From Chloroflexota bacterium (GTDB taxonomy: Bacteria > Chloroflexota > Anaerolineae > DUEN01): a DNA stretch of 64,000 nt. The notes beneath the pieces are model-generated. The model saw only the letters and a program-made list of their open reading frames with translations, was not told the DNA's origin and ran no database searches. The stretch spans positions 18,672 to 82,671 of the forward strand of contig JAADGJ010000062.1 of assembly GCA_013152435.1 (NCBI GenBank), written 5' to 3'. Below, in pieces: positions 8,654-33,408 of this stretch (its first letter is position 1; every line of letters begins with the position of its first letter). The position numbers and the translations under genes are program-made.

Positions 8654-9781
8654 TTATGCCCTGGCGTCGTGGGTGGGCTCGTGGGGAGCCGCCTGGCGCG
8701 TGGTGGACCGGATCGTGTTGCCCAGGAACAGGAGCACGGCGATCACGTTCAGGAGGCCGCCCCATCGTCGCCCTGGCCACCAAAACGCCAGGTCGCCCAC
8801 CAGCCGGATCAGCAGGGAGAGGTGTAACAGGATGAGGTGGGCGTAGAAGCTCCGTTGGAAGGTCACCGGGATTCCCAACAGTGCTGGGAAGATGATGGGC
8901 GCGTGCCCGAAGATCATGGCCATGACGAAGCCCAGGAGCACGGCGTGGAGCATGGCGTCGTACTGGGGTCCGGCCGTCATTCCGCCGATGAGCAGCCCGA
9001 TCAGCCCTCCGATCCCCAGCCAGACGTATCCGGAGAGCAGGCTGATGGCGATGAACCGGGATTGTCCCGGCCGCCTGATGGTGCGTCGGGCGATGTCATA
9101 GCGCAACAGCCATATGGCGATGGCCAGCATGCCCAGGCCCGATAGATGCGCCCCGGGGGCGAAGCGAATGCTGGAGACGACGAGCCCGATGAGGAGGATG
9201 GCGATGGAGGCCAGGAAGCTGGCGTATCCCCACCTGGACAGACGGCGCAGACGGCTGAGCTCCAGGCGCTCCCCGGCGATGGTCAACACCAGGAATCCCA
9301 CCCACCAGAGCACGGCGACCGGTATCGGGCGGCCCGCCAGCCACAGGAGATTCCCGACGAGCCAGGCGATCGCCCCCGTTTCCATGACCGCGATGGAGAG
9401 CTCGGGGCGTCGCCGGATCACCGCGACGAAGATCAGCACGACGCCGAAGGCGCCCAACGTCATCAGCAGGGGGCCGATGGCGCCGGGCAGGCCGATGATC
9501 AGGAGCAGGCCCCCGAGCCCCGTCGAGAGCGGCGCCAGATAGGGCCACCACCGCCAGGGCCCCGGTTTCCCCGTGGTGGCCAGGGCTACCGCTCGCTCCA
9601 GGCCGATGACGGTGCCCAGGAATCCCGAGATCATCAGCGGGCCATGGGAGATGGGTAGACCCGGTTGCCAGGTGGGCAGGCTCCACCCCAGCCGGATAAG
9701 CCCTGCCCACATCGCCGCCAGCAGGGCGACCATACCCATGAACAGCAGTGGCAAGCGACCTTTTCCTGCTGGTGCCATCAC
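8654..9781 (-). CDS. Polytopic membrane protein of unknown function (~12 TM; possibly NnrS-like)
   Basis: 375 aa and almost entirely hydrophobic helices. It follows the DUF1858 gene in an operon directly downstream of the nos cluster. A weak resemblance to the NnrS family (MLHAVLLGFVMAMIFGH) could not be verified. Confidence 0.6.
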   Translation of the reverse strand: MMAPAGKGRLPLLFMGMVALLAAMWAGLIRLGWSLPTWQPGLPISHGPLMISGFLGTVIGLERAVALATTGKPGPWRWWPYLAPLSTGLGGLLLIIGLPGAIGPLLMTLGAFGVVLIFVAVIRRRPELSIAVMETGAIAWLVGNLLWLAGRPIPVAVLWWVGFLVLTIAGERLELSRLRRLSRWGYASFLASIAILLIGLVVSSIRFAPGAHLSGLGMLAIAIWLLRYDIARRTIRRPGQSRFIAISLLSGYVWLGIGGLIGLLIGGMTAGPQYDAMLHAVLLGFVMAMIFGHAPIIFPALLGIPVTFQRSFYAHLILLHLSLLIRLVGDLAFWWPGRRWGGLLNVIAVLLFLGNTIRSTTRQAAPHEPTHDARA

Positions 9782-9850
9782 GCTCCTCTCGTTGCGGTCC
9801 GTCTTGCTCGTGACGCCACCGGCTGGCCTAACCCGGTTCCGGCGATGGCG

Positions 9851-10123
9851 TCACCGGTAGTCCTCCCGGCAGGTGAAGAGGTGAGGGCCGGGCGCGGAGA
9901 TGACCTGGCGCAGCTCGCCGAGGAAGCGATTCAGATCAAGGTTGTAGGCCGCCGCTACATCGGCCAGGGTGTCGAAGGGGGACATGGCGCAGCCGATGCA
10001 GGCCATTCGGTGGCGGAAGAAAACCTGCGCCGCTTGGGGCCAGTGTGAAAGCGTCTCAGCCACTGTCAAGCTGGCTTTAAGATCCGGGTGCTTCATAAGC
10101 GATTCCTCGGCTTGTGGGGGCAC
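9851..10123 (-). CDS. DUF1858 domain protein (hybrid-cluster-protein-associated redox disulfide domain, ScdA N-terminal-like)
   Basis: 90 aa. MACIGCAMSPFDTLADVAAAYNLDLNRFLGEL matches the small CxxC DUF1858 domain commonly found near NO/N2O-stress genes. Confidence 0.65.
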   Translation of the reverse strand: MPPQAEESLMKHPDLKASLTVAETLSHWPQAAQVFFRHRMACIGCAMSPFDTLADVAAAYNLDLNRFLGELRQVISAPGPHLFTCREDYR

Positions 10124-10392: not shown

Positions 10393-10415
10393 GCTCATGT
10401 CCGTGTGCTCCCTCG

Positions 10416-10820
10416 TCACTCCTGCAGCGAGCGTATATATCCGATGATCACCTGGATCTGTTCGTCGGTCAGCGCCGGGTTCCCGCCCTTCGGCGGCATG
10501 TCCACGCCCGTGGTGTTCTCCGGATCGCTGGCCGGCCGTCCCTTCTTGATGAACCCCAGCAGCTCCTCGTCGGTCATCCCCTTGACGAACTCGCTGGTCG
10601 TCAGGTCCTTGCCCAGCCCCGGCAATCCCTTCGCATCCGGGCCGTGGCAGGCGGAGCAGCTTTGCTCGAACAGCTTCTTCCCCTGCGCCAGGTCCTCAGC
10701 CGAGGGCCCCGATGGCGTGGGCACGGGTGTGGGCGTGGGCTCCTTCTTCTTGCCACACCCGGTCACGATCAGCGTGAAAGCCAACAAGATGATCAGGATC
10801 CACGATAGTTTGCGCATCAA
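10416..10820 (-). CDS. Class I c-type cytochrome lipoprotein, the likely electron donor of the nos cluster (NosC-like)
   Basis: 134 aa. Has a signal peptide with a lipobox (LIVTGC), a Pro/Thr linker, and a single CSACHG haem-binding motif. It lies directly downstream of nosL. Confidence 0.8.
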   Translation of the reverse strand: MMRKLSWILIILLAFTLIVTGCGKKKEPTPTPVPTPSGPSAEDLAQGKKLFEQSCSACHGPDAKGLPGLGKDLTTSEFVKGMTDEELLGFIKKGRPASDPENTTGVDMPPKGGNPALTDEQIQVIIGYIRSLQE

Positions 10821-10861
10821 TGTGCCTCTCCCTTCGCCTGTTCTCTGGGATCGGGACGGGA

Positions 10862-11470
10862 TCAGTGCCCGCCTCCCGAGTGCTCGGTTTGCATGTCCTT
10901 ATCCTGCTGCGTGTCCTTCTGCATATCCATTTGCATGTCTTGCTTCGTGTCCGACTCCGACTCCGTGTCCATTTGCATGTCCATCTGCATGTCCTTGTCG
11001 TGCATGGAGCCGGACATCGTCATCTCGCCTGAGGCGAATCGCTCGTGTAGCTCCTTAAAGGACACGACCTCACCCTGGTTCTCAGCGGCCAGCTTCTTGG
11101 CCCGTTCCTCATCGCCGAGGGCTACCACGCCATATCCCATGGGCGTGTACAGGGCCTGGCTGATCACGAAGAACGCTTGATCGGCTTTCAGCCAATCCTC
11201 GGTCTCATAATCGTGCACCCAGAGCGTGCCCTCCTCCTGCTGGTCCAGCAGGAAGAGCACCATATCGCCGATGTCGTCGAAGCGACGTACCTCGCCCTGG
11301 GGTGTCACGTAGGCCGCCGCAAAGCGCGGCTCGCTGATGATCATGCGGCATTGATCGCAGGCATCTTCACCATACCGAATGTCAGGTGGCTTGTCAAGTG
11401 GTGGGCTTGCCTGACACCCCATGGAGACCAGGAGGATCGATAGGAGACCCAAGAAAATCCGTGACATCAT
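10862..11470 (-). CDS. nosL: NosL copper chaperone lipoprotein with a Met-rich repetitive C-terminal tail
   Basis: True start is ATGATG at 11470 (MMSRIFLGLLSILLVSMGC lipoprotein signal), which overlaps the nosY stop as ATGA. Has the NosL-like core (EDACDQCRM...YVTPQGEVRRFDDIGDMVLFL...WVHDYET). The C-terminus is DKDMQMDMQMDTESESDTKQDMQMDMQKDTQQDKDMQT. Confidence 0.75.
   Translation of the reverse strand: MMSRIFLGLLSILLVSMGCQASPPLDKPPDIRYGEDACDQCRMIISEPRFAAAYVTPQGEVRRFDDIGDMVLFLLDQQEEGTLWVHDYETEDWLKADQAFFVISQALYTPMGYGVVALGDEERAKKLAAENQGEVVSFKELHERFASGEMTMSGSMHDKDMQMDMQMDTESESDTKQDMQMDMQKDTQQDKDMQTEHSGGGH
10895..11010. repeat. Imperfect tandem microrepeat (GCATGTCC-like 9-12 nt units) encoding the Met/Asp/Gln-rich NosL tail
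   Basis: Repeated ...tgcatgtccttatcc...catttgcatgtcttg...catttgcatgtccatctgcatgtccttg... On the opposite strand it produces the artefactual HLHVLLRVRL ORF at 10820-11032. Confidence 0.6.
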
Positions 11471-12300
11471 AGTGCCCCTCGCTGTCGAAAGATGAAATAG
11501 GCCAGGATCAGGGGCAGTACGATCCACGCCGTCAGGATGGCGATCAGGAGGGCCATCGCCCATTCGCCGTAGGTGCGCAGAGCGTATAGCCCCGCCGGCC
11601 CGAGAACTTCCCAGTTGCCGCGAATCGTCAGGATGGCGGCGATCTTGAAGACCTGAAGGGGGTTGAGCAGGGCCAGGGCGAACAGCTCTCCGATCTTCAT
11701 CCGGAGCATGATCGCCGTCCCCATCACCCCCAAATCGCCGAAGAAGACCAGCACGAGCCATAGGAAGAGGGCGATGCCGATGGCCATCGAGCCCTTCCGC
11801 AGGAAGGCGGATATGAGGAACCCCAGGCTCAGGCTGATCAGGGCGAGGAAGAAGGCCAGCACGGTCAGGCTCAGGTAATCCCACGTGTGGGCCGTGCTCC
11901 CTTGCCACGCGATCAGCAGGCCGCTCAACCCGAACCCCAGGGCTAGGGCCGCCAGGAGGGCCAGTCCCAGGCCCAGGTATTTGCCCGCCAGGACCTCAAA
12001 TTGGGTAATCGGCTGGGATAGGAGATAGAGCAGGGAGCCGCGCTCCCGCTCGCCCGCCAGGCTCAGCGCGCCCAGGGTCAGCCCCATGAGGGGGACGATC
12101 AGCAGCACCAGGTTGATGAGGCTGGCTCCCGTGCGCCCGAAGCCGGCCAACCCATACGACCCCGCTCCCGACAGCCCTAGCCACGCCAGGGCCAGCGCCA
12201 ACCCGGCGAAGGCCACGGTGTAGAGCAGGAACCACCGGTTGCGGCGCGCATCCAGCAACTCCTTTTGGGCCAGCACCAGGATATTGGTCAAATCGATCAT
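11467..12300 (-). CDS. nosY: NosY ABC-2-type permease
   Basis: 277-aa six-TM protein with the LAQKELLDARRNRWF N-terminus typical of NosY/ABC-2 permeases. It is positioned between nosDF and nosL. Confidence 0.8.
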   Translation of the reverse strand: MIDLTNILVLAQKELLDARRNRWFLLYTVAFAGLALALAWLGLSGAGSYGLAGFGRTGASLINLVLLIVPLMGLTLGALSLAGERERGSLLYLLSQPITQFEVLAGKYLGLGLALLAALALGFGLSGLLIAWQGSTAHTWDYLSLTVLAFFLALISLSLGFLISAFLRKGSMAIGIALFLWLVLVFFGDLGVMGTAIMLRMKIGELFALALLNPLQVFKIAAILTIRGNWEVLGPAGLYALRTYGEWAMALLIAILTAWIVLPLILAYFIFRQRGAL

Positions 12301-14621: not shown

Positions 14622-15290
14622 CTATCCTTCAGTCGGTGACCGCTCGGTGGCTTCCACCAGCGGCTTATAGGCTCGTCGATGGAAGTAGAGGCCCAGCAGG
14701 ATCAGGAACGAGGCCAATGCCGCCAGGTAGAACCCTCGATCTACGGAGGCAATGGTCTGGAACTGTCCGATTTTCCCCTCACCGAGCACGGGGGGAACGA
14801 ATGGCTCGATGGCGTTGCTCAGCGGCGCGCTGGGGTCCAGGTTCTGACCGAAATGGCGCAGCCAGAAGTACAGATCGCCCAGGAAGATGGCCGGGAACAG
14901 CAGGGCCGGCAGGGAGAGCAGCGCTGCCCACTGGTTGTGCACGTAGATCGCTGCGATGACCAGCAACGAGATCACCGCGATGGCGAAGATGCTCAGGGAG
15001 CGCTCCAGTTGTGCCGCCTCCTCCAGGGGGCGCATGCCGATATAGTGGTTCAGCCCGTCGATCTCTTTCACATCTCCGGTCATACGGTTCACGTAGACCT
15101 GGACCTCCAGCCCGTCCGGGTATTGGGGAGCCAGGAGCTTCAGTCGCCAGTAGGGCACGAAGATGGATACCAGCAGGCAGAAGGCTGCCAGTCCTAGGAA
15201 GACCGTGGGCAGGAGATAGCGTAACTGTTGTTCCGCCGTCTGCTCCGCAGGCAGGCGTGGCCCGATCAGCTTGTCCCATAACCCTGTCAT
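14622..15290 (-). CDS. nosB: NosB-like membrane protein (clade II nos clusters)
   Basis: 222-aa protein with ~4 TM helices. Its position immediately downstream of nosZ and upstream of nosD matches the nosB gene of clade II clusters. No informative motifs were found. Confidence 0.45.
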   Translation of the reverse strand: MTGLWDKLIGPRLPAEQTAEQQLRYLLPTVFLGLAAFCLLVSIFVPYWRLKLLAPQYPDGLEVQVYVNRMTGDVKEIDGLNHYIGMRPLEEAAQLERSLSIFAIAVISLLVIAAIYVHNQWAALLSLPALLFPAIFLGDLYFWLRHFGQNLDPSAPLSNAIEPFVPPVLGEGKIGQFQTIASVDRGFYLAALASFLILLGLYFHRRAYKPLVEATERSPTEG

Positions 15291-15371: not shown

Positions 15372-17420
15372 TTACGGTTGCACCAGGAAGTAGCCCGTCA
15401 TCTCCAGGTGCAGGGCAGAGCAGAACTCGGTGCAGTAGAAGGTGTAGACGCCGTCCTGGTCTGCCACGAACTCAAAGGTGGCCGTCTCTCCCGGCTCCAG
15501 GCTCAGGTTGATGTTGTACCCGGGCAGCGCGAAGCCGTGAGTGGCATCCTTGGCCCGCTCGATGTTGGTGATGTGCCAGATCACGCGGTCGCCCTTCTTC
15601 ACCTCGATGCGCTCGGGGTTGTAGTGGCTGCGCACGGCCGTCATCCAGATCTCCACGGTGTTGCCGTTGCGCACCACCCGCTCCTGTCCGGCCTCCACCG
15701 CGTTGGGATCCTTGCTCTGGGTGTTCGGGTTCCATCCGATCTCCGGATATACCTCCCAGGGCTGGAGCTTGTCGGCTTTGATGATCTGCGCGTAGTGCGG
15801 CTCGCCGATACCGATGGGCATATCATACAGGAGCTGGAGCTGGTCCCCCGGCTGAGAGATGTCGATGAGCTGGAAGTTCTGCGGCAGCAGCGGCCCCACC
15901 GTCAGGAACCGGTCCACCGACCACTTGTTCAGGGAGACCAGGTACTTGCCGTCCGGGCTGACCGTGTCCCCCTCGGCGGCGGCGATGTGCCCCACGTTGT
16001 AGTGGACGGGGATCTTGGTGACCAGGGACCACTCGGGATCGCTGTGCAACTCCTGGTAGGGGCCACCCAGCGTCCAGCGGGCCACCGCGCTGTCCAGGAA
16101 GAGGCTGGTGTAGGCGTACCCCTGGTTGTCGAACTGGGTGTGGAGAGGCCCCAGACCCAGCTCCACCTGGGCCTCCATCACATCGTCCAGGTTCAGGATG
16201 GTCACGCCGTACTGGTCCTTCTCGCCCGCGCCGCTCTCGATGGCCTTCTGGATCTTGTCGAAGCTGTACACGGTCACGTGGGGATCGAGCTTACCCGAGA
16301 CCACGATGTAGTCCCCGCCGGGTGCCACATCGACGCCGTGAGGGCTCTTGGGCTCCGGGGCGAAGTACAGCAGCCCTTCCGCGATCGACGTCTCCAGCGG
16401 GATCACGTTGAACCCGTTGACCTGGGTCACCTGGCCCGCCGCCGCCACCTCGGCGGCCTTCTTGAGGTTGATGATGTGGAGGTAATCCATGTCCTGCTGA
16501 GACGCGCCCGCCTCGAACGGAGGATTCCCCTCCTCGACGCCGCCGGTGCTCATCTCCGTGTTGAAGGAGTTGCAGAACACCCACCCTTCGCTCACCTTCT
16601 TGCCGGCGTCACAGATGTCCTGCCAGTAGGGGGGCAGCTCCATGGCGAAGGATTCCTCCGGCAGGATGCGGCCCTTCTCCCGATCGAACTTCCAGAAGGT
16701 GATCATGCCGCGGTAGGCCTCCGCGTAGTCGTTCAGGGAGGCGTACGTCCAGCCCAGCGGCGTGGCATACTGGCCGCCCTCGATCACCCACTCGGTGTTG
16801 GGGGTGGCCATGGTCCCGCCGTGATCGTTGATGGCGATGGGGTTCTTGACGATCTGCTTGGTCTCAAAATCTCGCAGATCGATGACCGCCACCCGGGCGT
16901 TGGCCTTGTCGTTGATGAACAGGAATTGGCCATCATAGTCTCCGCCCGTCTCGCTCAGGGCCGGATGATGGGTATCTCCCCAGGTGATCTTCTTCCCATT
17001 CACCGCCCCCTCGGCCAGCACTCGGTCCGTCTCCTCCGCGCCGTACCCCCAGCCCTGCCATGGCTCGGGCGTGAACACGCCGATCACCTTGAGCAGGCGC
17101 ATGGACGGCAGCCCGATGACCAGCACCTGGCCGGAGTGACCGCCGGAGGAGAACATCACGTAGTCGTCCTGCTTCCCCGTGGGGAGGTACGTCTTCAGGG
17201 CGGCGACGACGTCATCCGGCGTGAGTCCGCGTTCCTGGGCGATCGCCATGGCATCGCCGGATAGCTCCGTGGCTGGTTCGGCCACTGCCGTGGTAGCCTC
17301 CGGTGTGGCAGCCGGCTCCCCTGGCCCCCGCACGATGATCGCGACGACGATCAGGACGATGATGACGATGAGGGCCGCGACGAGAAGGGGGAGATACCGT
17401 TGCAAACTCTGGCTTTGCAT
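15372..17420 (-). CDS. nosZ: Nitrous-oxide reductase NosZ, Sec-type (clade II)
   Basis: The ORF spans 15372-17540, but the likely start is Met41 (ATG ~17420, behind AAGGAGG), followed by a hydrophobic anchor LPLLVAALIVIIVLIVVAIIV with no twin-arginine motif. It has the seven-bladed propeller CuZ region and a C-terminal CuA motif (YTFYCTEFCSALHLEMTGYF). Confidence 0.9.
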   Translation of the reverse strand: MQSQSLQRYLPLLVAALIVIIVLIVVAIIVRGPGEPAATPEATTAVAEPATELSGDAMAIAQERGLTPDDVVAALKTYLPTGKQDDYVMFSSGGHSGQVLVIGLPSMRLLKVIGVFTPEPWQGWGYGAEETDRVLAEGAVNGKKITWGDTHHPALSETGGDYDGQFLFINDKANARVAVIDLRDFETKQIVKNPIAINDHGGTMATPNTEWVIEGGQYATPLGWTYASLNDYAEAYRGMITFWKFDREKGRILPEESFAMELPPYWQDICDAGKKVSEGWVFCNSFNTEMSTGGVEEGNPPFEAGASQQDMDYLHIINLKKAAEVAAAGQVTQVNGFNVIPLETSIAEGLLYFAPEPKSPHGVDVAPGGDYIVVSGKLDPHVTVYSFDKIQKAIESGAGEKDQYGVTILNLDDVMEAQVELGLGPLHTQFDNQGYAYTSLFLDSAVARWTLGGPYQELHSDPEWSLVTKIPVHYNVGHIAAAEGDTVSPDGKYLVSLNKWSVDRFLTVGPLLPQNFQLIDISQPGDQLQLLYDMPIGIGEPHYAQIIKADKLQPWEVYPEIGWNPNTQSKDPNAVEAGQERVVRNGNTVEIWMTAVRSHYNPERIEVKKGDRVIWHITNIERAKDATHGFALPGYNINLSLEPGETATFEFVADQDGVYTFYCTEFCSALHLEMTGYFLVQP

Positions 17421-17562
17421 GGGCAAGAACCTCCTTTCTTTGGCTCTGTGGCCGGGAACTTGAAGGTAGCACCGGGGGAAAGTGCCCATGGTGCCGCGTG
17501 AAGAGGCCACGTTCAGTGGCCACTCCTCCCGACCCAGCATACGACAAACCGAGGGAGGTTTC

Positions 17563-18356: not shown

Positions 18357-18506
18357 GATACCGGAGAAAAGAAAAGGGTTGAGGGGGGCGAGGGGACGTG
18401 CGTTCCCTTTCCTTTTGCTGGCCTTTCATGGATCTGTCTTACCTCCTCTCGGCGATGGCGTATCCGCGTGCGGTGTGGAAGAGAGCACCTCTGGTCGAGA
18501 TCTGGG

Positions 18507-19853
18507 CTACCATGTGCCCGACGGGCGAGGACGCCAGTGACCATCCCCTGAGGGGGGCCTGTAGGGGTGCGATGGGGTTGACTCCAGGCGTGCCGGCGTC
18601 GTCAGCGCCGCCTCGATCGCGTCGTCCCGGCGCACGACGTAGGCGGGGATGTTGCTCGCGTACAGGAGCCTCAGCGTCTCGTGCCATGACGGCGCGGGCC
18701 CGAACGTGTTCGCCGCCAATAGCACGGCCACGCTGCGCACGCCGCGACGCCCCAACTCCCGCAGTGCGATGACCCAGTCCGGGGATATGGAGGGCGTGAT
18801 CGCGATGAGGGTCACGCTCCGGTTCAGGTGCTGTCCTTCCATGGCGATCACCTGGGCGAACGGCATGCGGCCCTGCGCCTCGACCACCGCCAGGGTCTCC
18901 AGGATTCGATCCAGCTGCCGCTCGCCGCGATCCGCCTGGATCACCTCCCGGGTTTGGGCGTGCGTGATGAATCCCACGGCCCGGTTGCGGCGCAGGAAGT
19001 GGCGAGCCAGCGATGCGGCCGCCGTGACCCCGTACTCCTCTGTGCTGGGGATCAGCTCCAGGCGGGTGGGCTCCCGGCGCAGCAGGAACGGCTGTCGGAA
19101 GCCGTTGTCGGTGGGCGGCGTCCAGGGCGCCTCGACGTGGACCGATTGGTCCATATCGAGGAAGATCCAGACGTCGGCCGTGGGATCGAGCTCGAACTCC
19201 TTCACGATCAGCCGGCCTGTGCGGGCGGTGGAGGGCCAGTGGATGCGGCTGAAGGAATCCCCCGGCTGATAATCGCGCACGCCGGAGACGTTCGTGGTCA
19301 CGTGGTGGATGCGGCGTCGCATGGCATCGCCCCCGGGCATCTCGCCCACGGGGAGCATGAAGCCGGGCAGCTCCACCGTTGCCGGATAGATGACCAGGGA
19401 GGACGTGGCGGGCAGCACGCGCTCCATCCGGAACAGCCCCAGGGGGTCGCCGGAGGCCAGGACCATGGGGCCCAGCGTATAGCGGCCGCGCTGCCGGCAT
19501 AGTGTGCGCACCAGCCAGCGCTGCCTTCGATGGCCGCCCAGGGCGCTGATCACCCGGCTCGTGTGATGCCCGGGCAGATCGGACAGGTCGCGAATCTCCA
19601 GCCACAGCTTGGGGAATCGGGAGCGGTTTTGGACCTCGAACTGCTCCTCCACGAATCGTCCGACCTGTGAGCGAAGCGAGCGCGTATATCGCCTGATCTG
19701 GACCCAGTTGACTCCCGACCAGGCCCACACGAAGGAGAAGATCACCACAGCGGTGATCAGATAGGCGACCGTATATGCGATTTCCCGGCCGGTGTTCAGT
19801 GCGAAGATCCAGGCGGCCAGGCCGAGGAGGATGACGCCCCATGAGCGTCGCAA
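18507..19853 (-). CDS. DUF58 domain protein (vWA-like, MoxR-associated)
   Basis: 448 aa. Has two N-terminal TM helices and the DUF58 signature DYQPGDSFSRIHWPSTARTGRLIVKEFE. It is directly downstream of the MoxR ATPase. Confidence 0.75.
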   Translation of the reverse strand: MRRSWGVILLGLAAWIFALNTGREIAYTVAYLITAVVIFSFVWAWSGVNWVQIRRYTRSLRSQVGRFVEEQFEVQNRSRFPKLWLEIRDLSDLPGHHTSRVISALGGHRRQRWLVRTLCRQRGRYTLGPMVLASGDPLGLFRMERVLPATSSLVIYPATVELPGFMLPVGEMPGGDAMRRRIHHVTTNVSGVRDYQPGDSFSRIHWPSTARTGRLIVKEFELDPTADVWIFLDMDQSVHVEAPWTPPTDNGFRQPFLLRREPTRLELIPSTEEYGVTAAASLARHFLRRNRAVGFITHAQTREVIQADRGERQLDRILETLAVVEAQGRMPFAQVIAMEGQHLNRSVTLIAITPSISPDWVIALRELGRRGVRSVAVLLAANTFGPAPSWHETLRLLYASNIPAYVVRRDDAIEAALTTPARLESTPSHPYRPPSGDGHWRPRPSGTW

Positions 19854-25802: not shown

Positions 25803-26321
25803 GTGAGTGAATTGTATCAGAATCCCGGGGAACACACAAAAGACGAGGCGCCGCGCCTGTTGGTCGATGCCATGCTGGGCAGGCTGGCGCGCTGGCTCCG
25901 CCTGCTGGGCTGCGATGCCGTGCTGGCTCCCAACGACGCGACCGATATGGAGCTGGTGCGGCGCGCTCGCGCCGAGGGACGCACCATCCTGACGCGGGAT
26001 ACCGCCCTCGCGCGGCGACGCGGCGTGGCCGTGTTGCTGGTCGCCAGCATGGAGTTGACGGCCCAGCTCCGGCAGGTGGTCGGGCAGCTGGGGATCGGTC
26101 GGGAGCGCATCGGCACGCGCTGCCTGGTCTGCAATCACGAGCTCGTTTCCCTGAGCCGGGAGGACGCCCGCGGTCGGGTCCCCCTCTACGTGTGGGAGAC
26201 GCAGCATCAGTTCCACTATTGTCCGCAATGCGATCGGGTCTACTGGGCGGGCACGCACTGGGAACAGATGCGCGCCCGGCTGGATGCCATACTGGACCCG
26301 GACGACCGGACGAGCCGGTGA
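25803..26321 (+). CDS. Mut7-C RNase domain (DUF82) protein with a C-terminal zinc ribbon
   Basis: RLLVDAMLGRLARWLRLLGCDA is the conserved Mut7-C N-terminal block. The C-terminal motifs CLVCNHEL...YCPQCDRVYW form a zinc ribbon. The ORF starts with GTG, so the start is uncertain. Confidence 0.7.
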   Translation: MSELYQNPGEHTKDEAPRLLVDAMLGRLARWLRLLGCDAVLAPNDATDMELVRRARAEGRTILTRDTALARRRGVAVLLVASMELTAQLRQVVGQLGIGRERIGTRCLVCNHELVSLSREDARGRVPLYVWETQHQFHYCPQCDRVYWAGTHWEQMRARLDAILDPDDRTSR

Positions 26322-31002: not shown

Positions 31003-33408
31003 TTAGGGCGCCAGGGTCACCGAGAGCTCAATGCGATCCGTCAGCGGCTGGCCGGCCTCGTCCAGGATCGACAGCCGCTCCCCGGTGCGCCAGTCGTACC
31101 AGCCCAGCGCGATGGTGTAACGCCCGGCGGGCGCCCCGGGCGGCAAGGCGACCTCCACCTGATCGCGCACCGGCACCCCGGGCGGCCAGGCATCCGTCGG
31201 GAACAGCCCGGCGACCGGAATGGTGTCCGCCTGGGTGACGAGCTCGTTCTCCTGGTTGATCAGGTGCACGAACATCGTGTACGACTTCTCCGGTAGTCGC
31301 TTGAAGCGCCACACCGTGTCGATGATCACCCGGGCTGGGTCGCCGATGGCCGGCCGGGTCTGGATGTCCAGCAGTTGCAGTCCCTCGCTGAACTCCGCCG
31401 GGACGACGCGCGGCAGCTCGAAATCGGGATCGGGGCCGCCCGGCGATAGCCGAACCTCCGCTACCCCCGGGTAATCCATGCCGACGCGCACGGCGTAAAG
31501 CCCGAACGGCGCGTCCTGGCCGATGGTGACCCGTTGCCAGGTCGCCACCACGTCTCCCGCGTGCCACTCCCCGTAGCGATAGGGCAGCGTCCCCGTCCAC
31601 ACGCCGCGTGGTATCCCCTCCGCATCCTCCACCACCAGCTGCACCGAGGGGGCCTCCGTGGGGGGCACATCCCCGGGATCATCCACCATCCAGTAGAGGG
31701 TCACCTCCAACGCGCCGCCGGGCCGCGCCTCGCCGGCGATGTCGTATCCGACCAGTCGGGGCAGCCCCTGGCCGGGCAATCCCTGGGTGCGGGCAGGTGG
31801 CCCCCCTTGATCGACGCGGTAGACCTCCAGTCCCGGCTCCCCTCTGGGGCTCTTCACCACGGCCAGCGGCGTCATCACGGGCAGCAGGCGTTGTAACCGT
31901 TCCCGATCCGGCATGGCCGAGTTGCCCAACAGGTAGATCGCCCCGCCGGGCGGCGGCATAAGGAGCGCCTTCCTGGCGTCGAACCATCGCAGCTTCGGAT
32001 CGCTGCGATCGAAGAACTCGGTCAGCGGCACCTCCTCGTACAGGAGCATGAACGAGGGATGGCGGTAGATATCGGCCGAGAGGTAGGCCAGTTGCTCCGG
32101 CTGGTTGCGCTTTAGCCAACGCGCCGCGGCGACCACATCTCCATCGAACGCCTCGAACGCGCCCGCGGAGCGTCCCCACGACACGAAGTACCCCCACCAG
32201 TTCAGCGTGGCATGGAAGATGAGCGCGCCGGCCAGCACCGCGGCGAAGGCCGTCTGTCGGTCCTTGGGGTTTACCCGGGCCCGCGCCCACTCCGCCACCT
32301 GCCAGGCTCCGATGGCCGGGAAGAAGTAGAGCCCGGGGAGCACTCCCAATGCTCGCGGCAGCGCGGGAATGCGGTCCACGGCCAGGAAGGTGGGGATCAT
32401 CATGACGGGCCACCACAGGAGGAGGAAGAGGAACCGCCGTCTGCGCCACTGTTGGATCAGATAGAGCACGCCGACGATGGCCAGGGCGCCGGTGATCACG
32501 TCGAACACTGGACGGCCCGGCAGGTTGTAGAACCAGTCCCGGTCCCCCAGCCCCGCCACGAAGAACTGCAACGTGTTGCCGAACAGCGCCAATACCGATT
32601 TCACGATCGGATTGCCGGAGCTGACGTGCGGGTTGCCGACGAACACCTCGCCCGCGCGAGAGGTGAAGCTGCCGGGGTGCTGGATGAAATAGCGGAACAG
32701 GGGGAGGAAGATCACGGTGGCGGCCGCGTACATGGCCAGGATGCCGCCCGGGAAGCGGCGCAGGATGGATGGCCGTCCCCGGCGGCCGTTGATCCACCAC
32801 TCGACGGCCAGATAGAGCGCCAGGAAGCAGGGCACCAGCCGGGAGGCGGTGTAGAAGTACAGGTTGATCCCCATGGCGACGCCGGATCCCACCATCCAGC
32901 GCCAATCTCGCCGGTTGATCCCCCGCCAGAACGCCCAGAAGCCGATGGTGGTCATCAGCGGCGTGAACACGCCCCGCACCCCGAAGCGGCTGAAGTGCAC
33001 ATGCCAGAAGCTGGTGGCCAGGAACCCGGCGGCCAGCAGCGGCACGGGGGTGTCCTCCAACGGGGTGCGGCGCAATAGCTCCTTGCCCAACCAATACGTC
33101 ATGGGCACGGTGATCAGCCCGGCGACGACGGAGGGGAAACGCACGGCGAACTCGTTAACGCCGAAGAGGAGGAAGCTGAAGGCGACCAGGAACATGTGCA
33201 GGCCCTCGCGCCCGTAGTTGGCGGGGAAGAAGACCTGCCCTCGCCCGGCGAGGACGTCGAGCGCGTCCAGCCCGTCGACCGCCTCATCGCCGAAGAGGCC
33301 GGGTGGGATAGTCCCGATCCGCCACAGCCGGAAGGCCACGGCGACGACGATCAGGAGAAACAGTGGGCTGATCGGCCAACGCCGACGGAGAAAGGATTTC
33401 ATGTCCAT
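31003..33408 (-). CDS. PMT/ArnT-family (GT39/GT83-like) polyprenyl-phosphate-sugar-dependent glycosyltransferase with a duplicated C-terminal module
   Basis: The N-terminal motif IPPGLFGDEAVDGLDALDVLAGRGQVFFPANYGREGLHMF is characteristic of the first periplasmic loop of GT-C mannosyl/arabinosyl transferases. It has ~12 TM helices, and its C-terminal domain carries two copies of the TLYW...FVHL...GLYD-type module. Confidence 0.7.
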   Translation of the reverse strand: MDMKSFLRRRWPISPLFLLIVVAVAFRLWRIGTIPPGLFGDEAVDGLDALDVLAGRGQVFFPANYGREGLHMFLVAFSFLLFGVNEFAVRFPSVVAGLITVPMTYWLGKELLRRTPLEDTPVPLLAAGFLATSFWHVHFSRFGVRGVFTPLMTTIGFWAFWRGINRRDWRWMVGSGVAMGINLYFYTASRLVPCFLALYLAVEWWINGRRGRPSILRRFPGGILAMYAAATVIFLPLFRYFIQHPGSFTSRAGEVFVGNPHVSSGNPIVKSVLALFGNTLQFFVAGLGDRDWFYNLPGRPVFDVITGALAIVGVLYLIQQWRRRRFLFLLLWWPVMMIPTFLAVDRIPALPRALGVLPGLYFFPAIGAWQVAEWARARVNPKDRQTAFAAVLAGALIFHATLNWWGYFVSWGRSAGAFEAFDGDVVAAARWLKRNQPEQLAYLSADIYRHPSFMLLYEEVPLTEFFDRSDPKLRWFDARKALLMPPPGGAIYLLGNSAMPDRERLQRLLPVMTPLAVVKSPRGEPGLEVYRVDQGGPPARTQGLPGQGLPRLVGYDIAGEARPGGALEVTLYWMVDDPGDVPPTEAPSVQLVVEDAEGIPRGVWTGTLPYRYGEWHAGDVVATWQRVTIGQDAPFGLYAVRVGMDYPGVAEVRLSPGGPDPDFELPRVVPAEFSEGLQLLDIQTRPAIGDPARVIIDTVWRFKRLPEKSYTMFVHLINQENELVTQADTIPVAGLFPTDAWPPGVPVRDQVEVALPPGAPAGRYTIALGWYDWRTGERLSILDEAGQPLTDRIELSVTLAP

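Follow-up and report, generated by a model that had tools for sequence, protein, structure and literature searches.

NosL, a Cu(I) chaperone with a lipid anchor, supplies nitrous oxide reductase (NosZ) with copper by way of NosD(FY). It carries its lipid on an N-terminal cysteine, binds a single Cu(I) with attomolar affinity and is of greatest importance under copper limitation; the maturation of NosZ is itself limited by copper supply. In the S. denitrificans protein (SdNosL), which requires Zn(II), the metal ligands are Cys59 (Zn), Cys62 (bridging), Met64 (Cu) and Met145 (Cu(I)) (Prasser 2021). The canonical structures used for comparison are those of the P. stutzeri NosDFYL complex, determined by cryo-electron microscopy (cryo-EM; 7OSF-7OSJ/7ZNQ), and of the S. 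denitrificans (7OG7) and A. cycloclastes (2HPU) proteins. The present analysis concerns a nosL gene at 10862-11470, on the minus strand of a 64,000-nucleotide (nt) stretch of a Chloroflexota bacterium (contig JAADGJ010000062.1, positions 18,672 to 82,671; the whole stretch is referred to below as the window, and all coordinates are those of the window). Its product continues past the NosL fold into a long, Met-rich tail. Judged by its homologues, this tail is an expanded and extreme form of the short His/Met tail carried by most NosL proteins, and it belongs to a known protein, not to a new system.

Met- and His-rich segments have been described on several other copper proteins. The PCuAC chaperones, AccA among them, have disordered His/Met tails whose affinity is about picomolar for both Cu(II) and Cu(I). 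In CopI, copper resistance depends on a His-Met tail that binds Cu(I). Motifs of the MDM or Mets type bind Cu(I), not Cu(II), with a Kd of about 1.3 uM. Tris-Met sites are weak singly, and Met-rich domains, such as that of E. coli CueO with its 14 Met in M355-G399, act together as a dynamic "Cu sponge".

The core of the window protein is that of a canonical NosL. The Pfam family NosL (PF05573) matches residues 35-143 with 62.6 bits against a cutoff of 24, and phmmer aligns the protein to P. stutzeri NosL (7osf_H) at 5.3e-08; an NCBIfam search returned nothing at E<=0.001. The lipobox cysteine, Cys19, is conserved in 117 of 120 aligned homologues, the same number that retain C38 and C41, and M43 is present in all 120. 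By alignment, C38, C41 and M43 correspond to Cys59, Cys62 and Met64 of SdNosL, with the ligand roles assigned there (Prasser 2021), and Met111 supplies the distal Met (Table 1). AlphaFold2 models the core, to about residue 150, with a predicted local distance difference test (pLDDT) of 97-99. The best Foldseek matches of this model are the NosL structures 7osf_H, 7osj_H and 7og7 (E 5e-07 to 2e-06), with target-normalised template-modelling scores (TMt) of 0.70-0.78, or 0.73-0.78 for 7osf_H and 7og7. MerB ranks next after the NosL structures, and a NosL/MerB-like two-domain beta-beta-alpha-beta fold is supported. The Pfam score, the copper ligands, the predicted fold and the position in the operon, after nosDFY, all agree with the identification as NosL made in an earlier reading of this DNA (here the original prediction). 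On this combined evidence, 10862-11470 encodes a bona fide NosL lipoprotein with its canonical Cu(I) site intact. One difference from the canonical proteins lies in the Zn site, where Cys88/Asp92 are replaced by Asp65/Asp69.

After the fold, the protein extends for another 52-59 residues or so, containing 11 Met, 3 His and six overlapping MxM motifs. The tail has three parts (Table 1). It begins with a proximal, semi-conserved segment, and the pattern GE-x-M...H-x-H right after the fold is common to the closest homologues (RFAAGEIMPGH, QPVAGEEMSQHVH, RPLTGEEMPQPMHSHE). The middle part, residues 158-195, is exactly the peptide singled out in the original prediction, DKDMQMDMQMDTESESDTKQDMQMDMQKDTQQDKDMQT, and is followed by EHSGGGH and the stop codon. 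Most of the tail Met are found in two alternating runs, M161/163/165/167 and M179/181/183. The tail is also acidic: the net charge of residues 151-202 is -9, and the last 55 residues include 10 Asp and 4 Glu. From about residue 151 onwards, the AlphaFold2 model lacks secondary structure and its pLDDT drops to 57-63, and the tail is predicted to be disordered, extracytoplasmic and flexible.

The Met content is exceptional in its own genomic setting: 11 Met per 45 residues is unmatched among 411 six-frame open segments of the 64-kb window, the runner-up, in a plus-strand frame, having 7. The spacing of the MxM motifs is non-random within the tail, because six overlapping MxM were reached in only 206 of 100,000 shuffles (p about 0.002). 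Like Mets-type motifs, the tail has at least three Met clustered at MxM or MxxM spacing. The original description of a Met-rich tail thus holds, the tail being real and in frame, and its MxM/MDM motifs are of the kind that binds Cu(I) in Ctr1, reflectin and CueO.

How is such a tail encoded? Over 10886-10999, the coding strand reads in a 6/12-nt register, (GAC ATG / CAR ATG)n, and can be divided into nine 12-nt units (DMQM DMQM DTES ESDT KQDM QMDM QKDT QQDK DMQT) or eighteen 2-codon units. The 12-nt units are identical to the consensus, GACATGGACATG, at 6-10 of 12 positions, and the array is a decayed 6/12-nt repeat, (GAC/CAR ATG)n. The original prediction had described a DNA microrepeat with a gcatgtcc unit; an imperfect tandem repeat does exist, but the octamer is not its unit, exact copies of GCATGTCC occurring only three times in the region (10891, 10975 and 10987). 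Two 12-nt arrays were detected by Tandem Repeats Finder (TRF), one at 10966-10994 with 2.4 copies, 94% matches and a score of 51, the other, weaker (66%), at 10902-10952. Only three arrays in the window reach a TRF score of at least 50. (The other two are a 31-nt x1.9 array at 25873-25930 and an 18-nt x2.1 array at 31854-31891.) The GC content of the tail region, 10886-10999, is 51%, compared with 64.7% for the window.

Low-complexity 3' ends of metagenome assemblies carry a general prior of error, and this prior is what can be said for the tail being a frameshift, a missed stop codon or an assembly artefact. The comparison of strains comprised five members of a 90%-identity cluster (from NCBI, JGI and ENA) and two encoding contigs. 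Two contigs, one of 26.8 kb from NCBI and one from the Logan assembly of run SRR33956865, encode an identical protein, and the frame and all 11 Met are kept in every sequence of the cluster, whose full-length members have 200-202 residues. An artefact is virtually out of the question, given that frame and length are the same in NCBI, JGI, ENA and Logan assemblies from different samples, that the EHSGGGH end resembles the ends of homologous tails and that a 41-nt spacer lies between the nosL stop codon and the next gene. A frame error had been raised as a concern with the original prediction, and the agreement of independent assemblies disposes of it. Three plus-strand open reading frames in the region (10405-11058, 10820-11032 and 10893-11180) were set aside, since they run antisense to nosL, the frame of which has the support of hundreds of homologues. 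A metagenome scan with a 17-mer anchor, GGCGAGATGACGATGTC (GGCGAGATMACGATGTC-type), gave an unspecific pattern of at least 120 loci, with the repeat in none of the matches listed.

The original prediction had further held that the tail is prone to length variation by slippage. A 97%-identical strain (metagenome-assembled genome (MAG) Dive96_bin10.82; L001/P0122), from a sphalerite (ZnS)-rich black-smoker sulfide chimney (Dive96) on the Southwest Indian Ridge, does lack one GAGTCG (Glu-Ser) unit and also has one Asp-to-Glu and two synonymous changes in the tail. This hexamer, however, is the only unit that differs in copy number between strains, by a 6-nt indel, and the Met repeat units show no copy-number variation among the five cluster sequences. 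Length variation of the slippage type is thus seen in the Glu-Ser unit and not in the Met repeats.

Tails are widespread in the NosL family. Two sets were compared, one of 119 close homologues (120 in the ligand alignment), mostly of the Chloroflexota type, and one of 120 Pseudomonas/Stutzerimonas-type proteins. At least 10 residues extend beyond the fold in 102 of the 119 close homologues, and 98 of these extensions have two or more His/Met. His makes up 13.6% of tail and 3.0% of core residues in this set, and Met 6.1% and 3.6%, respectively; HxH is present in 76/119 tails and MxM in 18/119. Among the Pseudomonas/Stutzerimonas-type proteins, at least two His/Met are found in 108/120 tails, in the arrangement M-x-H...H (typically ...PAGMSHSGH), and the C-terminal residue is His in 110/120. 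P. stutzeri-type NosL, with its short Met/His end ...AASMQHGGMHGHLSDDAHGAHAGH, is among the tailed proteins. Compared with these canonical tails, that of the window is 3-4 times longer, dominated by Met, acidic and built from a tandem codon repeat.

Met-dominated tails are rarer (21 of 266 sequences) and are scattered over sublineages at 36-91% core identity. Their units differ: MQMD in the window protein, and MEGM/MKGM, MDGM, MKMPMK, MGMSGM or MDM/MEM elsewhere. The nearest neighbours of Met-tailed NosL proteins are often His-rich or short-tailed. By this pattern of relationships, Met-dominated repeat tails arose several times from different units, and the scatter of the Met tails, their differing units and their His-rich or short-tailed neighbours together suggest repeated, independent selection for His/Met ligands. 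When the 2,584 family hits were sampled by 150 representatives at 50% identity, the most Met-rich low-complexity tail was that of the window NosL. A protein search with the tail alone gave no candidate with three shared 5-residue words among the matches listed, and no other MQMD-repeat class. In Caldilineae J4, at 64% identity the closest relative at species level, the protein ends ...GEIMPGHAQEHQMQMAD, which is a plausible seed for the expansion. The window tail would then be a lineage-specific outgrowth of the short Met/His tail typical of most NosL, produced by tandem duplication of a 6/12-nt (Asp/Gln-Met) codon unit between the proximal GE-M...H and the terminal H-S-G-G-G-H.

These comparisons support only in part the proposal that the tail is a novel adaptation for copper delivery. 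His/Met-rich C-terminal tails are the rule in NosL (98/119 and 108/120), so that only the degree is unusual here, in length, Met dominance and repeat structure. Nor is the tail an isolated novelty, since analogous tails have already been characterised on PCuAC/AccA and CopI. In the literature searched, which did not extend to the NosDFYL cryo-EM paper (Nature 2022), nothing connects NosL with Met- or His-rich tails, and the NosL structure/function papers and review are silent on them. In the cryo-EM structures, 143-151 residues of the 190-residue NosL chain are modelled, as judged from the Foldseek alignments.

What might the tail do? By analogy with other Met-rich copper proteins, the reading given somewhat better than even chances here is that it is an antenna or sponge with several low-affinity Cu(I) sites, from which the high-affinity core site is supplied. 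Its thioether clusters would bind several Cu(I) weakly and dynamically, probably with micromolar to nanomolar affinity per site, and its negative charge would add electrostatic attraction. The capture radius and the local copper concentration by the membrane would go up, and copper would follow an affinity gradient from the tail to the Cys/Met core site, to NosD and on to NosZ. The benefit would be felt mainly when copper is limiting. A Met-only form would select Cu(I), and low pH should affect it less than a His-based site. The recurrence of His/Met enrichment in both Chloroflexota-type and Pseudomonas-type tails speaks for such a role. NosZ needs 12 Cu per dimer.

Several observations weigh against the antenna, and most of them serve equally the serious, if unlikely, rival that the tail is a neutral, low-complexity slippage product at an unconstrained C-terminus and has no role in copper handling. 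The tail is absent from the otherwise functional-looking NosL of Thermomicrobium roseum, Bipolaricaulota and Calditrichota and is therefore inessential to the mechanism. Tail length and sequence are hypervariable among homologues, many lineages being tail-less, and even between close strains the tail takes substitutions as well as the 6-nt indel, a change that fits its repeat structure. Disruption of the P. stutzeri NosL C-terminus by Tn5 is reported to have left N2O reductase synthesis unaffected (cited in Prasser 2021), and deletion of the AccA tail in N. gonorrhoeae had no phenotype. Because the ACG Thr codons of the array are one transition from ATG (and the DT and QT units accordingly one transition from DM and QM), the array may be decaying; it could have held more Met earlier, or be eroding under GC-biased mutation. 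The four substitutions seen between strains all spare Met, an outcome with a chance probability of about 0.44 and hence no power for purifying selection on Met, and the enrichment statistics across the family ignore phylogeny.

On the other hand, drift at 65% GC is not expected to make or keep 11 ATG in 45 codons, the MxM spacing is non-random, and the five cluster sequences keep all their Met. The His/Met theme also recurs in tails that cannot be aligned with each other, in Chloroflexota-type as well as Pseudomonas-type proteins. By analogy, a cell well supplied with copper can do without a tail of this kind.

A different metal or oxidation state is quite an unlikely alternative. Here the Asp, Glu and His of the tail would coordinate Cu(II) or Zn(II), perhaps so as to supply the structural Zn site or to buffer toxic metals. 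Most family tails are indeed rich in His and not in Met (HxH in 76/119), PCuAC tails bind Cu(II) best, SdNosL needs Zn(II), the window tail has 10 Asp, 4 Glu and a net charge of -9, and sphalerite makes up most of the Dive96 chimney, the source of the 97%-identical strain. The window tail, however, has only 3 His to its 11 Met, and thioethers are poor ligands for Zn(II) and Cu(II). In model Met-rich sites, moreover, Asp added nothing to Cu(I) binding, and Met-only motifs bound Cu(I) and not Cu(II).

It is very unlikely that the tail carries no copper at all and acts as a flexible docking or tethering element (towards NosD, NosZ or the envelope) or as a sacrificial Met shield that protects the Cys ligands from oxidation. 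A disordered, acidic segment of about 52 residues could reach membrane-tethered partners, and tolerance of Met oxidation has been discussed for Met-rich domains. Docking, however, would need a common conserved linear motif, and the tails of different lineages have none; what recurs is the ligand composition, His and Met, and not the sequence.

The antenna reading draws on three kinds of better-known proteins. The tails of the PCuAC chaperones (B. diazoefficiens PcuC, Neisseria AccA) are, like that of the window NosL, disordered C-terminal extensions on an extracytoplasmic Cu(I) chaperone with a high-affinity primary site, and they too are not conserved family-wide. They bind extra copper at lower affinity and are conditionally important, and by analogy the NosL tail may be so as well. 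PCuAC proteins, however, have a cupredoxin-like fold and an H-Xn-M-X21/22-H-X-M motif, whereas NosL is MerB-like; the fold and motif of the window protein are of the NosL type, which makes it an analogue of PCuAC and not a member. Their tails are about 16 residues long, His-rich and best at binding Cu(II), whereas that of the window is about 52 residues long, Met-rich and repeat-based. PCuAC-type tails are described as short, disordered, rich in His as well as Met, and variably present. The window tail is disordered and variably present, yet long and with 3 His, and the NosL tails family-wide fit the description.

The Met-rich domain of E. coli CueO is comparable in Met density, with 14 per 45 residues versus 11 per 45 in the window tail. 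In CueO and CopI, flexible segments provide several weak Cu(I) sites that work collectively as a sponge, and the NosL tail could by analogy do the same. These proteins serve copper detoxification and not cofactor delivery, share no sequence homology with the tail and, in CueO, have the Met-rich region as an internal insert over the T1 site instead of at the C-terminus. The Mets motifs of Ctr1 and the MDM motifs of reflectin resemble the tail in being extracytoplasmic-facing, thioether-only MxM/MDM sequences, and theirs are Cu(I)-selective with micromolar affinity. They are found in eukaryotes, however, on an importer ectodomain or a structural protein, whereas the motif of the window is tandemly repeated on a bacterial chaperone.

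A broader reading, possible if rather doubtful, would make the NosL C-terminus a general second metal-handling element. Its forms would include M-x-H...H in the Pseudomonas type, His-/Met-rich sequences in Chloroflexota and Acidimicrobiia, and YtkA/FixH-like domains in some proteins. The window tail would be its extreme, Met-only form, a thioether antenna of roughly 3-4 Cu(I) sites, both created and tuned by slippage of the codon repeat, that is adaptive for scavenging Cu(I) in sulfidic, copper-limited hydrothermal chimneys. The link to a sulfide-chimney habitat comes from a single close relative, the Dive96 strain.

In some NosL homologues (P0256, P0238, P0158; L073:3959-5140; L079:8001-9194), a His-rich linker leads from the NosL fold to a C-terminal extension of 140-375 residues in which Pfam recognises YtkA-like and FixH domains. 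FixH is linked to copper handling for the cbb3 oxidase. Going by its domain content, this extension may be a fused second copper-handling module, and the presence of YtkA-like/FixH domains at the same terminus suggests, weakly, that the NosL C-terminus is a recurrent site for accessory modules. Another homologue, P0131, has a C-terminal extension with a CxxxCP-like motif and no second Pfam domain. In MAG UBA11865 (L037 8001-8804), the NosL frame runs without a stop into a lipoprotein cytochrome c that has its own signal peptide, which could be a true fusion, a lost stop or a sequencing error.

Why would such tails matter? N2O reductase is, to our knowledge, the only biological sink of the greenhouse gas N2O. 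Tails that do work in copper capture would account for the supply of Cu(I) to membrane-tethered clade II systems in sulfidic or metal-poor settings, and a second, low-affinity site would join the NosL-NosD-NosZ relay model, which was built on proteins whose tails are unmodelled, or undiscussed in the literature searched. Tail class and length would then also be a simple metagenome marker of copper-acquisition capacity. If the tails are dispensable, they would neatly illustrate how an unconstrained terminus is shaped by recurrent selection on composition, or by slippage.

The nosL gene is the last but one in the nos operon, in which the minus-strand order is Crp/Fnr regulator, nosZ, a gene for a 222-aa membrane-like protein, a nosDF fusion, nosY, nosL and cytochrome c (Table 1). 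The stop codon of nosY and the start codon of nosL overlap as ATGA (11467-11470).

Table 1. Parts of the nosL gene and its product, and neighbouring genes of the nos operon (window coordinates)
Feature	Position	Strand	Basis
nosL, 202 aa + stop	10862..11470	-	Translation; Pfam NosL 6.2e-17, 62.6 bits
Signal peptide and lipobox to Cys19 (MMSRIFLGLLSILLVSMGC; MMSRIFLGLLSILLVSMGC19)	11414..11470	-	Sequence; predicted lipidation
Metal-site motif C38-D-Q-C41-R-M43	11342..11359	-	Homologue alignment; alignment to P. stutzeri NosL
Met111, equivalent to SdNosL Met145, second Cu(I) Met ligand	11138..11140	-	120/120 homologues; aligned with the "GAMG" Met of P. stutzeri NosL
Proximal, semi-conserved tail part G148-E-M-T-M-S-G-S-M-H157	11000..11029	-	Closest homologues
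Met-rich repeat array D158-T195	10886..10999	-	TRF, repeat search, unit register
Hexanucleotide TCCGAC x2.7 (GAGTCG on coding strand, Glu-Ser)	10950..10965	-	TRF, 100% matches
Terminal His motif E196-H-S-G-G-G-H202	10865..10885	-	Resembles ...MSHSGH / ...HAGH ends of Pseudomonas-type NosL
Lipoprotein c-type cytochrome, directly downstream of nosL	10416..10817	-	Pfam Cytochrome_CBB3, Cytochrom_C; lipobox LIVTGC
nosY (ABC-2 permease)	11467..12300	-	Pfam ABC2_membrane_2 2.9e-29
nosD-nosF fusion, 770 aa	12305..14617	-	TIGR04247 NosD 429 bits; ABC_tran residues 499-637
222-aa protein, several hydrophobic membrane-like segments	14622..15290	-	Between nosZ and nosDF
nosZ, Sec-type (clade II)	15372..17540	-	TIGR04246 868 bits

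The operon departs from that of the canonical systems in being of the Sec-type clade II, with fused NosD-NosF and a transmembrane-anchored NosZ. The fusion protein is laid out as a NosD beta-helix (residues 43-424), a predicted transmembrane helix (~444-465, GVPSIGLLALAAMLIFLTQVPI) and an ABC ATPase (~483-700). Matches to NosD and NosF fall in one open reading frame at 37 of 71 related loci, including that of T. roseum (783 aa, annotated simply as NosD). The nosZ frame probably starts at M41 (17420), as suggested by the hydrophobic transmembrane anchor that follows, LPLLVAALIVIIVLIVVAIIV. Because NosZ, NosD, NosL and the cytochrome c each have a predicted transmembrane or lipid anchor, the whole NosZ maturation pathway appears to be membrane-tethered.

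The 222-aa protein gave no Pfam or NCBIfam match, and it may be the product of a nosB-like gene. The nos cluster of T. roseum has a hypothetical protein of about 211 aa in this place. Downstream of the cytochrome c (window 8654-10123, minus strand) are genes for a DUF1858 protein (81 aa), a 374-aa protein without a family match and an FTCD_C protein, and two other contigs (L084, L085) show this arrangement as well. Upstream of the Crp/Fnr regulator (window 18439-19842, minus strand) is a gene for a 467-aa protein, likewise without a family match, which adjoins that of a MoxR-type AAA ATPase.

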